Positions 8,512 to 20,846 of a DNA stretch of 30,790 nucleotides are shown in pieces. The DNA is from an uncultured Candidatus Poseidoniales archaeon (GTDB lineage Archaea > Thermoplasmatota > Poseidoniia > Poseidoniales > Thalassarchaeaceae). The stretch covers positions 1 through 30,790 of the forward strand of contig CAXEIX010000001.1 of the NCBI GenBank assembly GCA_963996605.1, read 5' to 3'. A model generated the notes under the pieces. That model was not told the origin of the DNA. It did not search any database and was given only the letters and a program-made list of their open reading frames with translations. Position 1 is the first letter of the stretch; every line of letters begins with the position of its first letter. Made by a program: the position numbers and the translations under genes.

Positions 8512-10830
8512 ATGTCCGGGGAAGCGAATACAGGTTTCGATATCCGTAGGCTCGCATCCAGGATAGAGTCCGGAGCGCCGAGCGCGGTCCTTTTCTCACT
8601 AGCCATTTCCGTGGTACTGGTAACTGCGGGGATAATCTACGTCCTTGTGGTCAGAGCTGCGCCTTTCTACTCTGCTTTCGGTTGCGGAGCCGATGTCTTC
8701 AGCCCCCCTGACGATTGGTCCGATTCAGTGAAAGAAGATCTATGGGATTCGGCAAACTATAGTGACGGCTCCATCATGGACCCCCTATGGCTAGACTCAA
8801 CATGCATCGTATCATACGATAACGAATCAATGATCGGGCTCGATGAGCCACTGATAGTTTTCGAAAGAGACAGAGACTCGCTGGGAAATCCACTGGAAGA
8901 TCCAGAAGGACACCTCGGTTACTCCGGTAACTGGACCGTTCATCCGAATAGGCAGTATATCTGGGCATACCTCGATGAAAATCCCGAGGACAACTACTCT
9001 GTTGCGGAAGGGGAGTCTCTGAAGGATGCCCAGATACCACTGGGGTTGATGATAGAAACAAATCCCCAGACCAATAGGGCTAACGAGGGTGCACTGATAC
9101 TCCACAAGTCGGATCCCGACCTCAAGAGAGACTGGTTCGTGATCACTTGGGCGATGAGTAACAGATCACAAGTAGACGTAGACGGGGATGGCAAACCCAA
9201 TATCGGGGTGGATGAGAGGGGTACGGACCTAGATACCGACATAGATAACGACGGATTTGACAATGATCGTGACGATGATATGGACAACGACGGGATACCA
9301 AACGCTTTCGATCCGGATGAGCGGATCCCTAATGTCGACTTTTTCGGCCTATTCCTTGGCTTATTGACCATAATTTTCGTGATTATGAATGTCTTCGCAC
9401 CTATGTGGTTGTCCAGGTTCGAGGATGAAGTCATCGACTCCACTATATCCCCATTGAACTCATTCTCAGTAGTAATTCTGACAATCTCCTCCATCGGGCT
9501 AATCTACCCGATGTCCCAATCCTTCATCTCGTACCTCCTACTAGCAACGATACTGTTGGCCATAATCCTCGCATGGTCCTCCAAGATAACACCACTCGGG
9601 TCGATTGCAGCAGCATTCGCACTACTGTGGCTTTCCATATTGCCAACCCACGCGATTCAAACAGGCCACCTGATGGCCCTAGGCCTCTCCCTTCTGCTAC
9701 TCCAAGTGACGATGTCTGATACGAGGAACCGAGTAAAACCAGACTCAACTCCCCTGGTAATTTCATTTCCGCTATGCAGAGACAGTTGGTCCCCAATTTC
9801 AGAAAGATCCTTCGGAGACAATGCATCACAGAGAGCTCGTAACATCGCCAGGTTGGGGATACTCCCATTGGCACCCTTGCTGGATTTTTCCCGCAGCCTC
9901 AGGAAATTCGCTACCCCTCGCTCGTCTTTTCTGGACAGGGACTTCAAATCTCTTCTTTGGGTAGTCGCCACAGTAGCCTTGGTTTTATCCTTCTTGGATC
10001 TCGTAGCAAGGATTGACGGGAGCATTGGGGAATTCCTGACCCAGACACTGTGGCGAACTGACATTAGGACGGTATCAATAGTCACCGTCTCAGAGAATTT
10101 GTCCATTGGCGTGAACGCACTATTGCGGACAACCCTACAAGTTGCACTTGGAGCCCTAGTGATCGCAATTCCCCTTGGCCTAGGGACTGCGATATACCTG
10201 TCCGAATATGCAGATCCAAGAACTTCAAACCTAGTTAAGCCAACCCTCGAGATCCTAGCAGGAATCCCCTCCGTCGTCTACGGCTTCTTCGCATTCGTGG
10301 TAATTTCCCCGATAGTGATGGATGTAGGCTCGCAACTTGTAGAATGGGGGTGGATGGCCGACGAGCCCCAACAGTTCAACCCTATCAACGGGGCCATAGT
10401 GGTCGGAATCATGATCACGCCTCTAATCGCCAGCCTATCGGAGGATGCACTCAGATCTGTTCCAAATAGCCTCAGAGAGGCATCATACGCTCTAGGGGCG
10501 ACTCCGGTCGAAACCACCTTCAGAGTGGTAATCCCATCAGGACTCTCGGGAATCCTTGCTTCGATTATATTGGCATTCTCCAGAGCTATCGGGGAAACAA
10601 TGGCCGTAACTATCTCCGTGGGGACAGCCGCATACTACACAAGAAACATGTTTCTGAGTTCTCAGACAATGACTGCGTACATTGCAAAGAAAATCCAGGG
10701 GGACCTTCCCGCGGGAACTTCTGCATACTACTCAATGTTCGCAGTCGGACTGTATCTGTTCATAATTACTCTAGGGTTGAATATGGTCGGCCAGAGAATA
10801 ATGCATCGCTTCAGGGAGGCATACGAATGA
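8512..10830 (+). CDS. pstC: Phosphate ABC transporter permease PstC with large N-terminal extracellular and membrane insertion
   Basis: The C-terminal ~240 aa carry PstC motifs (GTAIYLSEYA, KPTLEILAGIPSVVYGFFA, REASYALGAT, SRAIGETMAV). Total length 772 aa. Confidence 0.92.
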   Translation: MSGEANTGFDIRRLASRIESGAPSAVLFSLAISVVLVTAGIIYVLVVRAAPFYSAFGCGADVFSPPDDWSDSVKEDLWDSANYSDGSIMDPLWLDSTCIVSYDNESMIGLDEPLIVFERDRDSLGNPLEDPEGHLGYSGNWTVHPNRQYIWAYLDENPEDNYSVAEGESLKDAQIPLGLMIETNPQTNRANEGALILHKSDPDLKRDWFVITWAMSNRSQVDVDGDGKPNIGVDERGTDLDTDIDNDGFDNDRDDDMDNDGIPNAFDPDERIPNVDFFGLFLGLLTIIFVIMNVFAPMWLSRFEDEVIDSTISPLNSFSVVILTISSIGLIYPMSQSFISYLLLATILLAIILAWSSKITPLGSIAAAFALLWLSILPTHAIQTGHLMALGLSLLLLQVTMSDTRNRVKPDSTPLVISFPLCRDSWSPISERSFGDNASQRARNIARLGILPLAPLLDFSRSLRKFATPRSSFLDRDFKSLLWVVATVALVLSFLDLVARIDGSIGEFLTQTLWRTDIRTVSIVTVSENLSIGVNALLRTTLQVALGALVIAIPLGLGTAIYLSEYADPRTSNLVKPTLEILAGIPSVVYGFFAFVVISPIVMDVGSQLVEWGWMADEPQQFNPINGAIVVGIMITPLIASLSEDALRSVPNSLREASYALGATPVETTFRVVIPSGLSGILASIILAFSRAIGETMAVTISVGTAAYYTRNMFLSSQTMTAYIAKKIQGDLPAGTSAYYSMFAVGLYLFIITLGLNMVGQRIMHRFREAYE

Positions 10831-13800
10831 ATGGAGAAAACCACGGTTTCAGCCTTTTCGGGGTTAAATCGTTGCCTCAGAAGTCTCGAAAGAAAAGAGA
10901 TAGAATAGCGAATGCTGGAAAAGCAACGTTCATCCTGATTGCTCTGACCTGTGCAATCATACTATTCACAATGGTGTCTAGGATATACTCTGAAGCATAT
11001 GTCCCTTCGGAAGAAACCGAGGTTAGCGGAATAGGTGCCAATAAGCCCCTGTCCGAGACAGTAAAGTCTTGGAACGTAGAGACGTGGAACGAGGACTGGT
11101 CAGTCGACGATCCCCGAAGAGAAAGGACAAACGTCACCCTAAGGGCCGAGTGGACGGAGGTCAAGTACGAGGCTTACAACCAAAACGGGGTATTGGGAAT
11201 AACATTCGATCGATACGAAGACATCCAGAGATATCTTTGCGATGAAGGGATTATGGCGGACTCATTCGCCCCGTACGAGTCCTGGAAACCCAAGCACCTT
11301 CTCCCGGGACAAGACAGAGAACCCGCGTCGTACGATCCAATCTCTGACCAATTCTTCGACATTTTCCTTCGGGACACCCCCCCTACCGCTGGAATTGGAG
11401 ACTTCTGGATAGACTCCTCGGATGGAAACATTGCTCACATCTGGAAGGGGCTAAGGTGGGAAGAATTAGACCCACAGTCTTCGATGCTCTCCGAGATTTC
11501 CCAGAGACATCCTTACGATGAGGGGTCCCGGGATCCAATATGGTCCGATCAGAAAATCCGCGTTTACTACAGCCCAATAGAACCGCTGTTTAAGTCGTCG
11601 GGAGACATTTGGATTGTCACAGACGAGTCCGGGGACAGAATCGATTTCAGAACCTACAATTACACACTTTGGAAGGAAAACCGCTACACATCAGGTTGGG
11701 GCTGGGAAAATGGCAGCCTGGAAGAATTACCAAGCATCCTCCCCTTGCCGGAAGAACTGAATGAAGAAATCCACCCAGAATTCTGCTCAAGAGCAGAAGT
11801 GGCCGTCTTCATCCAAAGAAATGGACTCACCGGGTCTTACGAGATTTACCACATTTCCCATGATGACGGATACTCTTTCCGAGTGAAGCCGGGATCCACC
11901 AAGGCCATTCACAATGACCTGGAAATAGTCCTGTCCAATCACTGCGAAGGGTCTTTCCACAGCTCAGGGATCAGAGCAGACTTTTCTATACCTGAAGGAG
12001 ATTTCTGGTACAATATCTCTTCATTTCCTCCAAATTACGGGGGAGCGGGTCACGTAGGTGAAGGGGACTATTGGGTCGATTCCGATTCTTCCAGCAGCAA
12101 GGCATACCGTTTTGAAAACGGATCTTGGAAGGCCGACTATACGATTTCCCCGCTCATATACCCGTGCGATAGAATGACTCTAATGATTAGGGGTGACGGA
12201 GAGTTCTCGTATGGCAACATGACTCAATGGAACAAATATGGAGTCAGACAAGACTCCAGCTTCTTCTACGACCAGGAACCGAATGAAATCCAAACAATCA
12301 CCCTTCATCCTGCCCAGATAGGCCAATCAGGCTTGGGATCATTGTGGTTGGAGCACACAATGAATTACACCGTAACCTTCACTCAATTAGAAGGCCCTCC
12401 ATCCGATGCCAGGGACGGCTCATACAAGGAGGTCGACGACTTCATCCTCGGTCCGATGGGCGATTGGCTGAACTCTAGAATCTTCAATGACGGGGACCAG
12501 GATAACGACGGAATTTACGATGTCTGTGATGGTGACATAGACGGGGACAACAGCAAGAACCCAATAATGGGCGGAGACCAAGGCGACCCCGAGTCATTGG
12601 AAAGGGCCCTGAGCCAATGTCCCCAAGCCGTGCCTATGGTCCTAGAAGATGGCCAGATCAACGAAGAATGGATGATCGACACAAATTCTGATGGAGTCCA
12701 TGACGACACCGAGGACGATGACATAGACGGGGACGGGGTGAAGAACCTAGTCGATGGCCAAGGACACAATCTAGCATCACTAACAGATAGCGCAAGATGG
12801 GGGTGGCCCGAAGAGGGAATGACATCCTCGGAGGCGATTGAATTCTACCAATCACTCGACCCATCCTCTCCGGACAAAGGCCTAGAGTCCCTGATAGGGA
12901 TCTGGGAGGACGCCAGAGACTCCGAAGAAAGGATGTGCGATGAGTCATACAAGAACAAGTTCCCATCACTTGCAAAGGATGACTGTAGACGCTCTACAGA
13001 GTTCAACGCTAACCCCCCAATGGATGCAGACGAGTGGTGCGAAGGGGCAATGACGCTATTGCAACCAAGAGTCTGGTCTTCCTACTGCGGCATCTCGACA
13101 TCTTTAGAGACGGGTATCGATGAATATCAGGATCCCTTTCCGCTGGAAGAGATATTTGCATACGCGTTGCTCATTGCAGCCTTCTTGCTGATGCTTTTCC
13201 CCGGGGTGGTGGTCCTCCCTGCAAGCAACTTCCTGAGGAGGTTCGATGGCGATATTATAGAGACAAATCCCACGTGGTCCAGAATAGTCTACCTGTCAGA
13301 ACTCATAGGGCGCCTAGTCTCACTTGCTATGAGATCAATATTGCTGATCGTCGGTGCTTTCATTCTGTCACAAACACTGGCATCGCCGATAGCAATCATG
13401 ATCTTCGTATTCACCATCGGAATCTCACTAACATTGATGTCAGGGCTGGCCGTATTAACCTCAATATCATCAATCATCAAACTCAGGCCAGAAGATGGAG
13501 TTAGGCCGTCCGAAGGGGCGGTAGAGGGGACCTTCCTCCTTCTAACATTGATTACATGGTTAGTTGTAGCTGATTGGGTCATCGATCGCGGAATCCTGTC
13601 CGGGTCAATCTGCCTACTCCTAGCACTGTCTGCAACAAAAAGGATGGCTGCCGGTGCATCGCAACTGACTCGAAGCCAGAATATCAACTCCGACAGGGTC
13701 AAGAGGGTTGTGATGGGCAGAGACGGTTGGATAATCGTTGCCTCAGTCTTCCTCATCGTGGGCTTCTTTACTATCCCATTCGAGGTAGTCAACTCCTTCA

Positions 13801-14681
13801 TTTTCTCAAATTTCCCCTCACAGCAACCATACCGGGCGGGATTGAGGGCCGCTTTCTGGGGGAGCGTGTACGTTGTGGGTTACACAATGATATTCGCCAT
13901 CCCCGTTTCCATAGGGGGGGCAATCTGGCTGGAAGAGTACGCTCCAAGGGGGAAACTTCAGTCCGGGATACAGACCCTGATAACCAACCTAGCCGGAGTC
14001 CCTGCCGTAGTCTTCGGTTTGTTCGGCCTTGCACTATGCTCCTCAGATCGAGGATTCGGAATGGGCCTAGGGGGGACCATCCTCACCGCGGGAGTGACAA
14101 TGGCGACAATGGCAATGCCAACCATAGTTATTGCAAGCCAAGAGGCACTCCGAGCAGTCCCTCCATCATTGAGAGAGGGAGCATTCGGAATCGGTTGCAC
14201 GAAGTGGCAAGTGGTCAAGGACCACGTCCTCCCACACTCAATGCCGGGAATGATGACTGGCACCATACTTGCAATGTCCAGAATTATGGGCGAGGCAGCA
14301 CCTCTGATACTAGTAGGTGCGGTGACCTCAGTCTTCCAGGAACCAGACCCGCTCTACTACGTAGACTATACCTGGCTCCCCACCATCGATGGATTCTTCC
14401 AATGGGTGCCGGGCTTGGAGTCTAGGGTATCAGAGATGCCTATGTGGGCAGATAGGCCAATCATGACTGCAGACCCAACTTCTTTCACAACCTGGGGTTC
14501 GAACCCCGGTGGAAAATACACCGTCCTACCGGTCCAGGTATACACTTGGACCGATCAGCCAGAGGAGGGATTCAAGGTCGCGGCCGCAGGTGCATCACTG
14601 GTGCTTTTGGGAACGTTGGTCATGGTCAACTCCGTGGCAATCCTCGTCAGGGCGCACTTCAGGAGATTCTCACAGGCTTAA
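10827..14681 (+). CDS. pstA: Phosphate ABC transporter permease PstA with ~730 aa extracellular insertion
   Basis: ATGA overlap with pstC. The C-terminal part has PstA motifs (AIWLEEYA, NLAGVPAVVFGLFG, SLREGAFGIGCTKWQVV, SRIMGEAAPL, TVLPVQVYTW). Total length 1284 aa. Confidence 0.92.
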   Translation: MNGENHGFSLFGVKSLPQKSRKKRDRIANAGKATFILIALTCAIILFTMVSRIYSEAYVPSEETEVSGIGANKPLSETVKSWNVETWNEDWSVDDPRRERTNVTLRAEWTEVKYEAYNQNGVLGITFDRYEDIQRYLCDEGIMADSFAPYESWKPKHLLPGQDREPASYDPISDQFFDIFLRDTPPTAGIGDFWIDSSDGNIAHIWKGLRWEELDPQSSMLSEISQRHPYDEGSRDPIWSDQKIRVYYSPIEPLFKSSGDIWIVTDESGDRIDFRTYNYTLWKENRYTSGWGWENGSLEELPSILPLPEELNEEIHPEFCSRAEVAVFIQRNGLTGSYEIYHISHDDGYSFRVKPGSTKAIHNDLEIVLSNHCEGSFHSSGIRADFSIPEGDFWYNISSFPPNYGGAGHVGEGDYWVDSDSSSSKAYRFENGSWKADYTISPLIYPCDRMTLMIRGDGEFSYGNMTQWNKYGVRQDSSFFYDQEPNEIQTITLHPAQIGQSGLGSLWLEHTMNYTVTFTQLEGPPSDARDGSYKEVDDFILGPMGDWLNSRIFNDGDQDNDGIYDVCDGDIDGDNSKNPIMGGDQGDPESLERALSQCPQAVPMVLEDGQINEEWMIDTNSDGVHDDTEDDDIDGDGVKNLVDGQGHNLASLTDSARWGWPEEGMTSSEAIEFYQSLDPSSPDKGLESLIGIWEDARDSEERMCDESYKNKFPSLAKDDCRRSTEFNANPPMDADEWCEGAMTLLQPRVWSSYCGISTSLETGIDEYQDPFPLEEIFAYALLIAAFLLMLFPGVVVLPASNFLRRFDGDIIETNPTWSRIVYLSELIGRLVSLAMRSILLIVGAFILSQTLASPIAIMIFVFTIGISLTLMSGLAVLTSISSIIKLRPEDGVRPSEGAVEGTFLLLTLITWLVVADWVIDRGILSGSICLLLALSATKRMAAGASQLTRSQNINSDRVKRVVMGRDGWIIVASVFLIVGFFTIPFEVVNSFIFSNFPSQQPYRAGLRAAFWGSVYVVGYTMIFAIPVSIGGAIWLEEYAPRGKLQSGIQTLITNLAGVPAVVFGLFGLALCSSDRGFGMGLGGTILTAGVTMATMAMPTIVIASQEALRAVPPSLREGAFGIGCTKWQVVKDHVLPHSMPGMMTGTILAMSRIMGEAAPLILVGAVTSVFQEPDPLYYVDYTWLPTIDGFFQWVPGLESRVSEMPMWADRPIMTADPTSFTTWGSNPGGKYTVLPVQVYTWTDQPEEGFKVAAAGASLVLLGTLVMVNSVAILVRAHFRRFSQA

Positions 14682-14693
14682 GGGGGAAAAATA

Positions 14694-15803
14694 ATGAAAA
14701 AAGAAAACGCAAAGAAGGAGAAAATCAGGACATCCGTCCTGGAAAAACTGAGGGAGATTATGGAATCAGACGGCGAAGTCAGCGATGAGGAGCAAGTCAG
14801 ATTCGATAGTATGGAGAGGACACTGAACGACTTATCCAGAGAACCATCGAGGAGCGAAGTCAGACTGATGCTCACCTCGATGTCCAAGGTAGACGGAGTG
14901 GCAGATTTCGCAGAGTCAGCAATCATCAAGAAATTCATGGAGTCGCTCCCTGAGGAGCCGCCGAAGGACAATGAAGGTGAGAAAGGGGATCTTCCGGATA
15001 ACATCAATCCGGACACACTCCAATCAACCAGGGAACTCCACATAGATGGCGAGGCGCAAATAGAAGTCAAGGATCTTAACCTAAGATATGGCTCAGCACA
15101 AGCTCTATTCGACGTCTCAATCCCAATAGAGAAAAACTCCGTAACCTCTCTAATCGGACCATCAGGTTGTGGGAAGTCTACATTGCTCAGATGTCTGAAT
15201 AGAATGAATGACCTAATCCCCATCTGCAACTTTGACGGTAGCATCGTTTACGATGGCGATGACATCAACAAGTCAGGCACCGACCTTGTAAGGCTAAGGA
15301 GAAAGATAGGGATGGTGTTCCAGAAGCCCAACCCATTCCCCAAATCAGTATTCGACAACGTATCATACGGGGTTCAATTACACTACAACCCCTCAAGGAG
15401 GAAGATGAACGAGATAGTCGAGAAGTCGCTCACCAGTGCCGCTCTTTGGGGAGAGGTTTCGGACCGCCTGCATGAACTAGGGACCAGCCTTTCAGGAGGC
15501 CAGCAGCAGAGGCTCTGCATAGCCAGGACCATCGCGGTCGAGCCAGACGTAATTCTGATGGACGAGCCATGCTCCGCGCTAGACCCCATAGCCACGGCCA
15601 AGATAGAGGACTTGATTACGCAGCTGAAGGAGCACTTCACAGTGGTCATTGTCACTCACTCAATGTCCCAGGCAATGCGAGTCTCGGATTACACCGCATT
15701 CATGTTCCTTGGCAGATTGATAGAGTTCGACAAGACGGAGAAGATCTTCAACAACCCGGGCAATGAGCTGACAGACCGATACATCTCGGGAAGGTTTGGC
15801 TGA
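14694..15803 (+). CDS. pstB: Phosphate ABC transporter ATPase PstB with ~120 aa N-terminal extension
   Basis: Walker [10 protein letters not shown], PstB-typical [10 protein letters not shown] and [12 protein letters not shown], signature [13 protein letters not shown], Walker [14 protein letters not shown]-terminal YISGRFG. Confidence 0.96.
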
Positions 15804-15897: not shown

Positions 15898-16191
15898 ATG
15901 GCGCTAGCGATGGCTAGCAACTCGAGGGTCTGGGCCCTGATCGGAATCTCGATCATTTCCGTAGCTTCATTGACAGTCGTGGCAACAAACTCGATCGCCA
16001 TAGAAAGGGGGGAGGTTTCGGCCCTCGGTTCAAAGGAAATCCTCTGTATCGCCGACTCATGCATGACTTCTGAGATAGTTTACATAGAGGGGGACGAAAC
16101 AACATATCTCGTATACATGCCACCAGGATTAGATTCCAACAAGAAAGTAGGAACGCAATATTACGGGCTAAAGATGAGCCTGGGGAGGTGA
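15898..16191 (+). CDS. Small hypothetical protein with N-terminal hydrophobic helix
   Basis: 97 aa with VWALIGISIISVASLTVVA. Follows an AT-rich promoter-like region (15845-15890). Confidence 0.5.
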   Translation: MALAMASNSRVWALIGISIISVASLTVVATNSIAIERGEVSALGSKEILCIADSCMTSEIVYIEGDETTYLVYMPPGLDSNKKVGTQYYGLKMSLGR

Positions 16192-19349: not shown

Positions 19350-19437
19350 TTTTGAGAGTCCCCTGGATATACCACAGAGTAATACGCACAAGTCTGCTCC
19401 GCTGCTTGCTCGCTAGATTTCAATTGGAGGTTTTTTG

Positions 19438-20175
19438 ATGGTTCAGAATGGGATTTTGATTGCTGTCGAGGGCATGGACGGATCCGGGAAGAGCACGCAA
19501 GCAAAGCTGCTGTACCACTGGCTCAGGGCCAAGGGGCTCCCGGTCTTCCACACCGAGTGGAACTCGAGCAAGATAGTCAAGCAAGCGACCAAGATAGGGA
19601 AGAATACCCATAGGCTCCTGCCAATCACGTTCCACATGATACATGCCGCAGACTTCGCAGACAGGTGGGCACAGCAGATAGAACCGGTCTTGGAGATAGG
19701 CGGGATAGTGATTTGTGACCGCTACAAGTATACGGCCATGGCGAGGGACGGTTCAAGGGATGTCCCCCGAGAGGTCATCGAGGACACATACTCATTCGCG
19801 AGGGAGCCAGACCTGACCCTGTACTTCGACGTCCCAGTGGATGTCAGCTTCGATCGCATCGCCAAGGGCCGACCGAGGCTGAAGTTCTACGAAGCCGGGA
19901 TGGACATGGGGTGGACGACCGACCCGTTCGAGTCCTACAGGATCTTCCAAGGCAAGGTCTCGGAGATCTACTCGGGACTCGTGGACGAGGGAAGGATCGT
20001 ACGCCTCGATGCCGAGGGAACCGTGGCGGAGGTCCAGTCCAGGGTTAGGGAGGCCTTCGACAAGCACATCGACCTCTCTGAGGTACAGGTCATCGACCAA
20101 TCGGATAGGCTAGCACAGAATCTCAGCGAGTCCGACATCGACTGGCTAACGTACTCGGGGGGTGAGGGGGAATGA
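19438..20175 (+). CDS. Thymidylate-kinase-fold P-loop kinase, putative catalytic subunit of a heteromeric polyphosphate kinase
   Basis: Intact Walker A EGMDGSGKST and DRY. TEWNSS replaces the TREPG motif and there is no AYQG motif. SD GGAGG at 19426-19430. Confidence 0.75.
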   Translation: MVQNGILIAVEGMDGSGKSTQAKLLYHWLRAKGLPVFHTEWNSSKIVKQATKIGKNTHRLLPITFHMIHAADFADRWAQQIEPVLEIGGIVICDRYKYTAMARDGSRDVPREVIEDTYSFAREPDLTLYFDVPVDVSFDRIAKGRPRLKFYEAGMDMGWTTDPFESYRIFQGKVSEIYSGLVDEGRIVRLDAEGTVAEVQSRVREAFDKHIDLSEVQVIDQSDRLAQNLSESDIDWLTYSGGEGE

Positions 20176-20846
20176 GCCACGCGGGCAAGCTGATAGTAAT
20201 CGAGGGCCCGGACCACGTAGGAAGAACCCTACACGTGCGCCTCCTATCTGCCAGGTTGAAGGCGAACGGAATCGCAACCCACATCATAGGGCTGGCCCGT
20301 TCCGAACTGATGGGCGAGATTGTCAAGTCAAGAACCGCTGACATCCACCAGCTGAACTGGCGAACCAGGTCGCTCCTGTACGCCACCGACCTGCACGACC
20401 AGATCAAGCACGAGGCAGAACCGCTGCTGGATGCCGGATTCGTGGTCATCGCTGACCGGTACACACTCACTCCGAGGATCAGGGAGCAGGTGAGGGGCGG
20501 GGATGGTGATTGGATCGACTCGCTATACTCCAATACCCCCGATCCCGATGCCATGATCGTACTCCACGCAGGGCCTCGCCGACTGTTGAACCGAATCATG
20601 TTCGGAGAGAGCCTGGAGGCGCTGAACCACTTCGAAGCAGGCATGGACCTCGCACTCTCCTCGTCCATCACCTCTTCCTTCCTGCAGTACCAGAAGATCC
20701 TCAGGCAGGAGTTCCAGGATGCTGGGAAGACAGCAGGCGCCACCCTGATTCCGACTAGACACACCGTCCAAGACGTCCATGACAGGATATGGGACTCGGT
20801 ATACCCAGTCGTGGAGCACATGCTACAGCCGATAGATGGGAACTAG
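20172..20846 (+). CDS. Thymidylate-kinase-fold paralogue with degenerate P-loop, putative regulatory subunit
   Basis: EGPDHVGRT replaces GxxxxGKS/T. It shares DRY and F/YEAGMD with the upstream gene, and has an ATGA overlap with it. Confidence 0.72.
   Translation: MSHAGKLIVIEGPDHVGRTLHVRLLSARLKANGIATHIIGLARSELMGEIVKSRTADIHQLNWRTRSLLYATDLHDQIKHEAEPLLDAGFVVIADRYTLTPRIREQVRGGDGDWIDSLYSNTPDPDAMIVLHAGPRRLLNRIMFGESLEALNHFEAGMDLALSSSITSSFLQYQKILRQEFQDAGKTAGATLIPTRHTVQDVHDRIWDSVYPVVEHMLQPIDGN

Follow-up and report, generated by a model that had tools for sequence, protein, structure and literature searches.

The window analysed here, a stretch of 30,790 nucleotides from an uncultured Candidatus Poseidoniales archaeon of the Thalassarchaeaceae (GenBank assembly GCA_963996605.1, contig CAXEIX010000001.1, positions 1 to 30,790 of the forward strand), carries a co-oriented phosphate operon of which pstB is the last gene (Table 1). 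Its product matches the PstB equivalog model TIGR00972 at 388.7 bits (cut-off 343.2), with residues 123-369 aligned to model positions 2-248 of 248, and the genes immediately upstream of it, in the same orientation, are pstS, pstC and pstA, recognised as one PBP_like_2 gene and two BPD_transp_1 genes. Since the model is covered over its whole length and the match begins only at residue 123, the open reading frame encodes a PstB with about 121 additional N-terminal residues. This extension is made up of an internally duplicated four-helix domain of 85 residues and an acidic tether of about 35 residues, behind which a normal PstB ATPase follows. The tether is rich in Pro, Glu, Asp and Asn, with 11 acidic and 3 basic residues among 36, and in homologues it varies from about 20 to 65 residues in length and is acidic in all of them. 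An initial annotation made from the letters alone had described an extension with two D-G-x5-E motifs 41 residues apart and a low-complexity linker behind them, and this description was recovered letter for letter, the motifs occupying residues 26-33 and 67-74.

Table 1. Features of the pstB gene and of the phosphate operon that it closes, in coordinates of the window.
Feature	Coordinates	Strand	Basis	Remark
Operon remainder	3718..14681	+	Pfam: MazE/AbrB + PhoU, PBP_like_2, BPD_transp_1 twice	
AbrB-PhoU regulator	3718..4764	+	Pfam MazE/AbrB plus PhoU	precedes pstS
Giant PstS, 1163 aa	4916..8407	+	Pfam PBP_like_2	
PstC, 772 aa	8512..10830	+	Pfam BPD_transp_1	
PstA, 1284 aa	10827..14681	+	Pfam BPD_transp_1	stop codon 14679-14681
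Shine-Dalgarno-like GGGGG	14682..14686	+	read from sequence	7 nt upstream of the pstB ATG, just past the pstA stop
pstB open reading frame, 369 aa	14694..15803	+	translation of the window	
Compact TerB-like four-helix domain, PstB residues 1-85	14694..14948	+	AlphaFold2, Pfam, hhalign, ESM Atlas, dN/dS	
Motif 1, D26-G27-x5-E33	14769..14792	+	DGEVSDEE	helix 1/helix 2 loop
Motif 2, D67-G68-x5-E74	14892..14915	+	DGVADFAE	helix 3/helix 4 loop
Acidic low-complexity linker and conserved S-T-x-x-L-x-I-D-G prelude, residues 86-121	14949..15056	+	composition, pLDDT	
Canonical PstB ATP-binding cassette, residues 122-369, and stop codon	15057..15803	+	TIGR00972; Pfam ABC_tran	

The pstB ATG starts 12 nt past the pstA stop codon. 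Relatives carry a GGAGGT Shine-Dalgarno sequence at a comparable position, and in the MGIIa relatives the equivalent ATG overlaps the stop codon of pstA. Contigs assembled from RNA libraries (metatranscriptomes of three studies) span positions 14669-15802 including the pstA/pstB junction, which is consistent with transcription and does not prove it; they attest to presence in RNA libraries and carry no information on transcript ends or translation. A 97%-identical strain is free of indels, and six of its eight differences within 14694-14960 fall at third codon positions. In-frame ATG codons at residues 23, 40, 59, 63 and 82 and a GTG at residue 69 would provide for a mis-called start, with translation beginning downstream (e.g. 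at Met82) and the apparent domain being an untranslated leader; past residue 82 there is no further start codon ahead of the Walker A motif. This alternative is hardly credible, however, given that the Shine-Dalgarno sequence is found at the first ATG only, that the ATG of relatives overlaps the pstA stop, that an open frame under codon-level purifying selection is kept over 18-47% identity and that the fold is predicted with confidence. A translation start downstream of the motifs, named as a refuting outcome in the initial annotation, is contradicted by the ribosome-binding signal at the first ATG as well as by the purifying selection.

AlphaFold2 prediction of residues 1-95 from a 23-sequence alignment yielded a mean pLDDT of 84.6 and a pTM of 0.74, with modelled helices at residues 2-23, 31-46, 53-64 and 72-84 arranged as an up-down bundle. 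The two D-G loops join helices 1 and 2 and helices 3 and 4, respectively, and thus lie at the same end of the bundle. Closer comparison of the two halves by hhalign revealed an internal duplication, the second half being homologous to the first (84% probability, E 7e-6). In the full-length model the domain was again confident and residues 89-121 were disordered (linker pLDDT 26-31); the ATPase part of this model, built from a 23-row alignment, was poor (mean pLDDT 51), and the placement of the domain relative to the ATPase is not readable from it. A two-copy homodimer prediction of the N-terminal domain scored 0.01 against a mark of 0.42 and bears on dimerisation neither way. A prediction of disorder or of a coiled coil would have counted against the initial annotation; residues 1-85 are modelled as neither of these and instead as a folded helical domain, which precedes the TIGR00972 core at residues 123-369.

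Conservation of both motifs in homologues, which had been suggested as a check, was readily apparent. In an alignment of 21 sequences with 18-47% identity to this protein, E33, D67, E74 and I78 were invariant and D26, G27, E55 and L60 were conserved in at least 90%. Of 104 family proteins, 98 have the strict DG-x5-E pattern at site 1 and 50 have it at site 2, the remainder having DS-x5-E at the latter; this reflects a replacement of G68 by serine in one subclade, and D26 and G27 vary in a few members. When residues 1-121 were shuffled 100,000 times, two or more DG-x5-E motifs occurred in 0.18% of the shuffles. Between diverged homologues, for which synonymous distances are saturated, dN/dS was 0.10-0.18 for the domain, about 0.5 for the linker and 0.01-0.025 for the ABC core. 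We regard it as almost certain that the N-terminal domain is real, translated and selected.

TerB (PF05099; tellurite-resistance protein TerB; TerB-like structures 2h5n and 2ou3) and the domain described here, as modelled, are both all-helical and built of two helix / [AV]-D-G-x5-E / helix units, and TerB provides the best Pfam, hhalign, feature and shape match. That a duplicated motif characterises TerB, as the initial annotation had assumed, was confirmed in the 15 archaeal proteins that score above the Pfam TerB cut-off: all 15 share exactly two invariant D-x6-E pairs, which in their alignment are separated by about 75 residues (D33...D108). PF05099 was the top Pfam match for this protein at 20.1 bits (E 8e-4), below the cut-off of 24.4 bits, and it was the best Pfam match in most family members (12.9-26.9 bits), three members having no TerB match. 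The highest of these scores, 26.9 bits, belongs to the homologue L003/P0010, which lies above the cut-off and is annotated as PF05099 in the precomputed annotation of the database; the other members with TerB as best match reach 12.9-22.5 bits. In hhalign the family aligned to the 15 archaeal TerB proteins with 70% probability (E 4e-5), the first half on its own reaching 79% and the second half 12%; D26, G27 and E33 fell on the D, G and E of the template (ADG-x5-E), and the motif letters were always in register. Features from a protein language model ranked TerB clusters first with a score of 0.81, which serves as a lead only. A shape search of the ESM Atlas returned TerB, DUF533/TerB and DjlA/TerB clusters at TM 0.60-0.63, and its best match, with a TM of 0.70 and an rmsd of 2.3 A across 81 residues, was a bacterial cluster of ABC_tran+TerB proteins.

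Other searches returned little. With residues 1-115, phmmer against 1.84 billion representatives recovered no TerB protein, its sole match being a 35-aa fragment from within the family (E 1.1e-5), a word-indexed search with residues 1-125 returned only a 92%-identical cluster, and neither phmmer nor a profile gave a significant match to PDB sequences. The family profile encountered the first annotated TerB/DUF533 protein among 5.8 billion proteins only at E 0.31; that TerB/DUF533 protein and contig-end fragments of the fusion were all that was retrieved when stand-alone copies of near length were sought. Foldseek found no match in the PDB at E <= 0.001. Among 48,161 chains, VIA-align matched generic helical bundles with Z scores up to 7.5, and the TerB-like 2h5n (Z 6.8, rank 6) was within this background; the search of solved structures therefore does not discriminate.

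The size of the domain differs from that of canonical TerB, which has 120-150 residues and about 75 residues between its motifs; here there are about 85 and 41, respectively, and the middle helices are missing. Canonical TerB also stands alone or in ter/defence operons, while this domain is fused to a transport ATPase. Both helix / D-G-x5-E / helix units are present in it, D and E being conserved, and because of its 85 residues and 41-residue spacing we file it as a compact TerB-like variant and not as canonical TerB. The TerB-like identity put forward initially thus stood with respect to Pfam ranking, hhalign, language-model features and the ESM Atlas, and has to be qualified with respect to a score below the Pfam cut-off, non-specific PDB searches and the shortened length. 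Taken together, the domain is probably a compact and divergent member of the TerB superfamily, with a kinship that is well supported but remote.

Two helix-loop-helix units with the pattern D-G-x-[IV]-x3-E could also be read as an EF-hand-like calcium-binding pair instead of TerB. The pattern D-G-x-h-x3-E, read from the sequence, fits EF-hand loop positions 5-12, and EF-hand pairs have an inter-motif spacing close to 41 residues, as is seen here. One homologue gave a weak EF-hand_8 match (E 0.005, 17 bits, cut-off 28), and calmodulin and myosin light chains came up among PDB sequences with the family profile at E 1-2. An EF-hand loop has 12 residues, with acidic or polar ligands at positions 1, 3, 5 and 12; by this reading, however, positions 1 and 3 would be I22 and E24 and lack the acidic pair of an EF-hand, TerB ranked above EF-hand in every Pfam scan, and EF-hand proteins were absent from the best 50 VIA-align rows and from the ESM Atlas rows, in which TerB clusters were present. 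The AlphaFold2 model, an up-down bundle, is likewise unlike an EF-hand pair. Failing at loop positions 1 and 3 and in every ranking, the EF-hand reading is very improbable and was rejected.

A profile of the N-terminal domain retrieved 103 metagenomic protein clusters, all of them marine ABC ATPases of 369-401 aa, and those few that carry a functional name are designated phosphate transport ATP-binding protein. The locus search with the single protein found only two near-identical MGII genomes. In a survey of 401 Poseidoniales genomes, PstB was present in 80 and the fusion in 22, the latter distributed over 8 of 26 genera and both large families; every inspected copy of the domain was fused to PstB. 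The cores of 41 PstB proteins were compared in a maximum-likelihood tree with the plain 257-aa PstB type as root. Lineages that carry the domain (this one, G148 and a 17-row MGIIa group) were placed at or near the base of one PstB clade, with two domain-less groups nested among them. One of the latter is a 12-row clade with 100/100 support, and the other comprises the four nearest relatives of this core (86-87% identity), which have open frames of 288-293 aa. The domain-less forms retain a short low-complexity tail and the S-T-x-x-L-x-I-D-G prelude. The supported branches imply at least two changes of domain state, and the simplest reading of the tree would be a single gain followed by at least two losses, the domain being ancestral to one PstB clade.

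This distribution bears on whether the domain might be a tolerated appendage without specific function, either an acidic solubility tag or the remnant of a captured neighbouring TerB gene, that is now being lost. The domain has been lost at least twice within the PstB clade according to the tree and evolves about 10x faster than the ABC core, and in two genomes (G035 and G040) a possible source exists in stand-alone TerB genes located a few kb away from pstB. On the other hand, its dN/dS of 0.10-0.18, even with saturated synonymous distances, the invariance of E33, D67 and E74 and its retention in two families and eight genera point to sustained purifying selection, and the neighbouring linker, at a dN/dS of about 0.5, illustrates what relaxed constraint looks like here. 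A functionless appendage is therefore very improbable. As for the tandem TerB genes of G035 and G040, a functional link to pstB was considered and set aside: the distance to pstB is 2.5 kb, with unrelated sugar-nucleotide genes in between, and other genomes have the TerB genes far from pst.

Among the papers searched there was no publication linking TerB and PstB, none on PstB in Poseidoniales and no description of a comparable N-terminal domain for PstB. The architecture is nevertheless present in databases without comment, both in P0010 (PF05099 + PF00005) and in the bacterial ABC_tran+TerB cluster mentioned above. This ESM Atlas cluster (372 aa, 207 members, mostly Pseudomonadota; ABC_tran in 100% of members and PF05099 in 96%) agrees with the archaeal protein in the order of its parts and nearly so in length. 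The comparison is one of annotation and shape alone; its ATPase may be PstB or another ABC ATPase, and the two fusions may be homologous or convergent. In a feature search with the whole protein, the closest PstB-like clusters did not include it.

The position of phoU differed between genomes with and without the domain. In the main domain-less subclade, a stand-alone phoU follows pstB within about 70 nt or overlaps it in all 16 genomes, and the gene in this position encodes about 225 aa. In the second domain-less subclade phoU is located directly 3' of pstB in G089 and G279; in G132 and G227 there is no phoU after pstB, and a thymidylate-kinase-like pair is found in its place. Overall, phoU directly 3' of pstB was observed in 18 of 20 domain-less genomes compared with 0 of about 21 domain-bearing ones. 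In 11 domain-bearing MGIIa genomes a stand-alone phoU is found next to AbrB-PhoU, at the end of the operon remote from pstB. A search for stand-alone phoU down to E <= 1 in four domain-bearing MGIIb genomes (70-85% complete), including the present one, detected only AbrB-PhoU, and no stand-alone copy was found in the window or in this genome. The genomes of the phoU survey are 70-94% complete and the pattern corresponds to perhaps two or three evolutionary events, so that it counts as a hint and not as proof.

E. coli PhoU binds PstB and limits Pst transport (PMC4423584). The initial annotation had proposed a metal or oxyanion sensor that gates the ATPase or docks PhoU; judged by gene order, a domain that stands in for operon-coupled PhoU would fit at least as well as one that docks it. 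We consider the best explanation overall, with a probability of about 0.5, to be that the domain is a cis-acting regulatory module with putative cation-binding carboxylates that would in part substitute for co-translated PhoU. Tethered to each PstB subunit by a flexible linker of about 35 residues, the module would stay close to both ATPase subunits, at the inner membrane face. Its four conserved loop carboxylates would serve to bind a divalent cation, an activity proposed for TerB domains, and the module would take over part of what co-translated PhoU does in sister operons that lack the domain, where it restrains Pst activity or reports it. The components of this proposal differ in strength. 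Direct metal binding by the four conserved carboxylates is putative and, at somewhat below even odds, a tentative assignment, and a regulatory role linked to the rearrangement of phoU is possible though more doubtful still. The most specific version, in which the fused domain would be a built-in substitute for operon-coupled PhoU, acting in cis on the PstB dimer as a brake or reporter that depends on a cation, is unlikely.

The main rival to the regulatory module is a docking or tethering function without sensing, in which the domain would hold PstB at the inner membrane face, at cytoplasmic loops of the giant PstC and PstA or at the AbrB-PhoU protein, and would thereby aid assembly of or signalling by the oversized transporter. 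An association with the inner membrane has been described for TerB proteins and for the TerB-like domain of DjlA, a long flexible tether carries the present domain, the other subunits of this Pst system all carry large lineage-specific additions, and the regulator encoded in the operon contains a PhoU domain. However, a domain-less PstB of the sister subclade works with a similarly enlarged PstA (L007), which indicates that the domain is not needed for the giant architecture, and the invariant residues are loop carboxylates, which are better suited to ion binding than to a protein interface. We hold the docking function to be unlikely.

Several known systems resemble the proposed regulatory module in part. 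PhoU, like this domain, is a small helical-bundle protein with conserved acidic motifs, and it acts on PstB and limits transport (PMC4423584); it differs in being a separate polypeptide of about 225 aa, and the functional analogy is one that we infer. The Pfam PhoU model gave no match to residues 1-121, and there is no sequence or family relationship between the two. PhoU itself consists of two three-helix bundles. The membrane co-chaperone DjlA has a TerB-like domain, its function also unknown, between its membrane helix and its J-domain, and thus places a TerB-type module on an effector domain at the inner membrane face as seen here (DjlA_TM/TerB cluster, TM 0.63). Its effector is a J-domain and not an ABC ATPase, however, and DjlA itself is membrane-anchored. 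Ligand- or partner-binding domains on the ATPase of ABC importers that tune transport are represented by the C-terminal domains of MalK, MetN and ModC and the CBS domains of OpuA. These are C-terminal, adopt TOBE/OB, ACT-like or CBS folds and are rigidly packed, whereas the domain described here is N-terminal, TerB-like and carried on a disordered tether; common to all is an extra domain on the ATPase subunit.

The value of the fusion lies mainly in the assayable context that it provides for an uncharacterised TerB domain and in the accompanying phoU pattern. TerB domains are widespread (tellurite-resistance clusters, DjlA, several anti-phage systems) but have no established biochemical function; the literature on the domain calls its function unknown and mentions only membrane association and speculation about sensing. 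PstB, on the other hand, is among the best-understood ATPases and is amenable to simple assays, and a natural fusion together with close domain-less relatives offers a handle on TerB-type modules. If the domain does substitute for PhoU, a TerB-type domain would for the first time have a concrete biochemical role, the modulation of a membrane transport ATPase, and the substitution would represent PhoU-independent control of Pst in archaea whose sole PhoU domain is part of a DNA-binding AbrB fusion. The mutually exclusive occurrence of the domain and a pstB-coupled phoU yields a testable hypothesis on how Pst may be restrained without co-translated PhoU. Marine group II archaea are abundant heterotrophs of the surface ocean that have to cope with phosphate scarcity, and with the fusion their unusual, giant Pst system would gain an element of control in the cytoplasm.

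A separate phoU gene, encoding about 225 aa, was located directly 3' of pstB in all genomes (16/16) of the main subclade whose PstB lacks the TerB-like domain, and likewise in genomes G089 and G279. Among the approximately 21 genomes with a TerB-like domain on PstB, phoU directly after pstB was found in none; in the four genomes of the marine group II subgroup MGIIb that carry the TerB-PstB fusion, the AbrB-PhoU regulator gene was the sole phoU-type gene found. Every PstB of this clade exhibited the prelude [IV]-P-D-S-T-x-x-L-x-I-D-G ahead of the first beta-strand, whether or not the TerB-like domain was present. The plain 257-aa type of PstB that also occurs in this order lacks the prelude.

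Features identified in and around the pst loci (L, locus; G, genome of the Poseidoniales sample)
Feature	Location	Strand	Remarks
Stand-alone phoU	L007 822-1505		after domain-less pstB
Stand-alone phoU	L096 956-1666		after pstB
Stand-alone phoU	L098 533-1243		after pstB
PstB prelude	window 15009-15056		sequence here [14 protein letters not shown]
97-aa ORF	window 15898-16191	+	conserved in G317 (L100 1672-2049)
Thymidylate-kinase-like gene pair	window 19435-20846		downstream of pstB
Tandem stand-alone TerB genes	L073 15501-15977 and 15984-16433		G035
Tandem stand-alone TerB genes	G040 contig 2, 51954-52703		
216-aa ORF	L038 (G264 contig 20, about 53.9-54.1 kb)	-	predicted membrane protein

The thymidylate-kinase-like gene pair seen downstream in this window was encountered immediately 3' of pstB in G132, G227 and G148 (loci L095, L097 and L099), which makes it a neighbour that recurs with this type of pst operon. 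The 97-aa ORF that separates pstB from the choice-of-anchor-I gene starts with a hydrophobic N-terminal segment. Since its sequence is nearly identical in G317, this ORF may encode a genuine small protein, either membrane-bound or secreted.

Comparison of pstB from L004 (G028) with L024 and L025 (G267 and G086) revealed a synonymous divergence of about 0.25 in the first 131 codons, compared with about 2 when the ATPase cores of these genes were aligned. This disparity is suggestive of recombination with a breakpoint within pstB, or of a 5' part that was exchanged recently.

In the ESM Atlas, the modelled TerB-like domain of PstB was matched best in shape by a bacterial cluster (row 5; 372 aa, 207 members, mostly Pseudomonadota) with ABC_tran in 100% and TerB in 96% of its members. 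Within the Poseidoniales, the 216-aa ORF of L038 has two A-D-G-x-[IV]-T-x-E-E units at its C-terminal end and was matched by the profile of the N-terminal TerB-like domain family of PstB (E 3.6e-4); it is a further short TerB-like arrangement in this order. Two genomes of subgroup MGIIa, G035 and G040, harbor tandem stand-alone TerB genes (149-158 aa, scoring above the Pfam cut-off) at a distance of about 2.5 kb on the 3' side of TerB-PstB, with sugar-nucleotide genes in between, while the TerB gene pair is distant from pst in other genomes. These tandem genes are a possible source of the domain fused to PstB.
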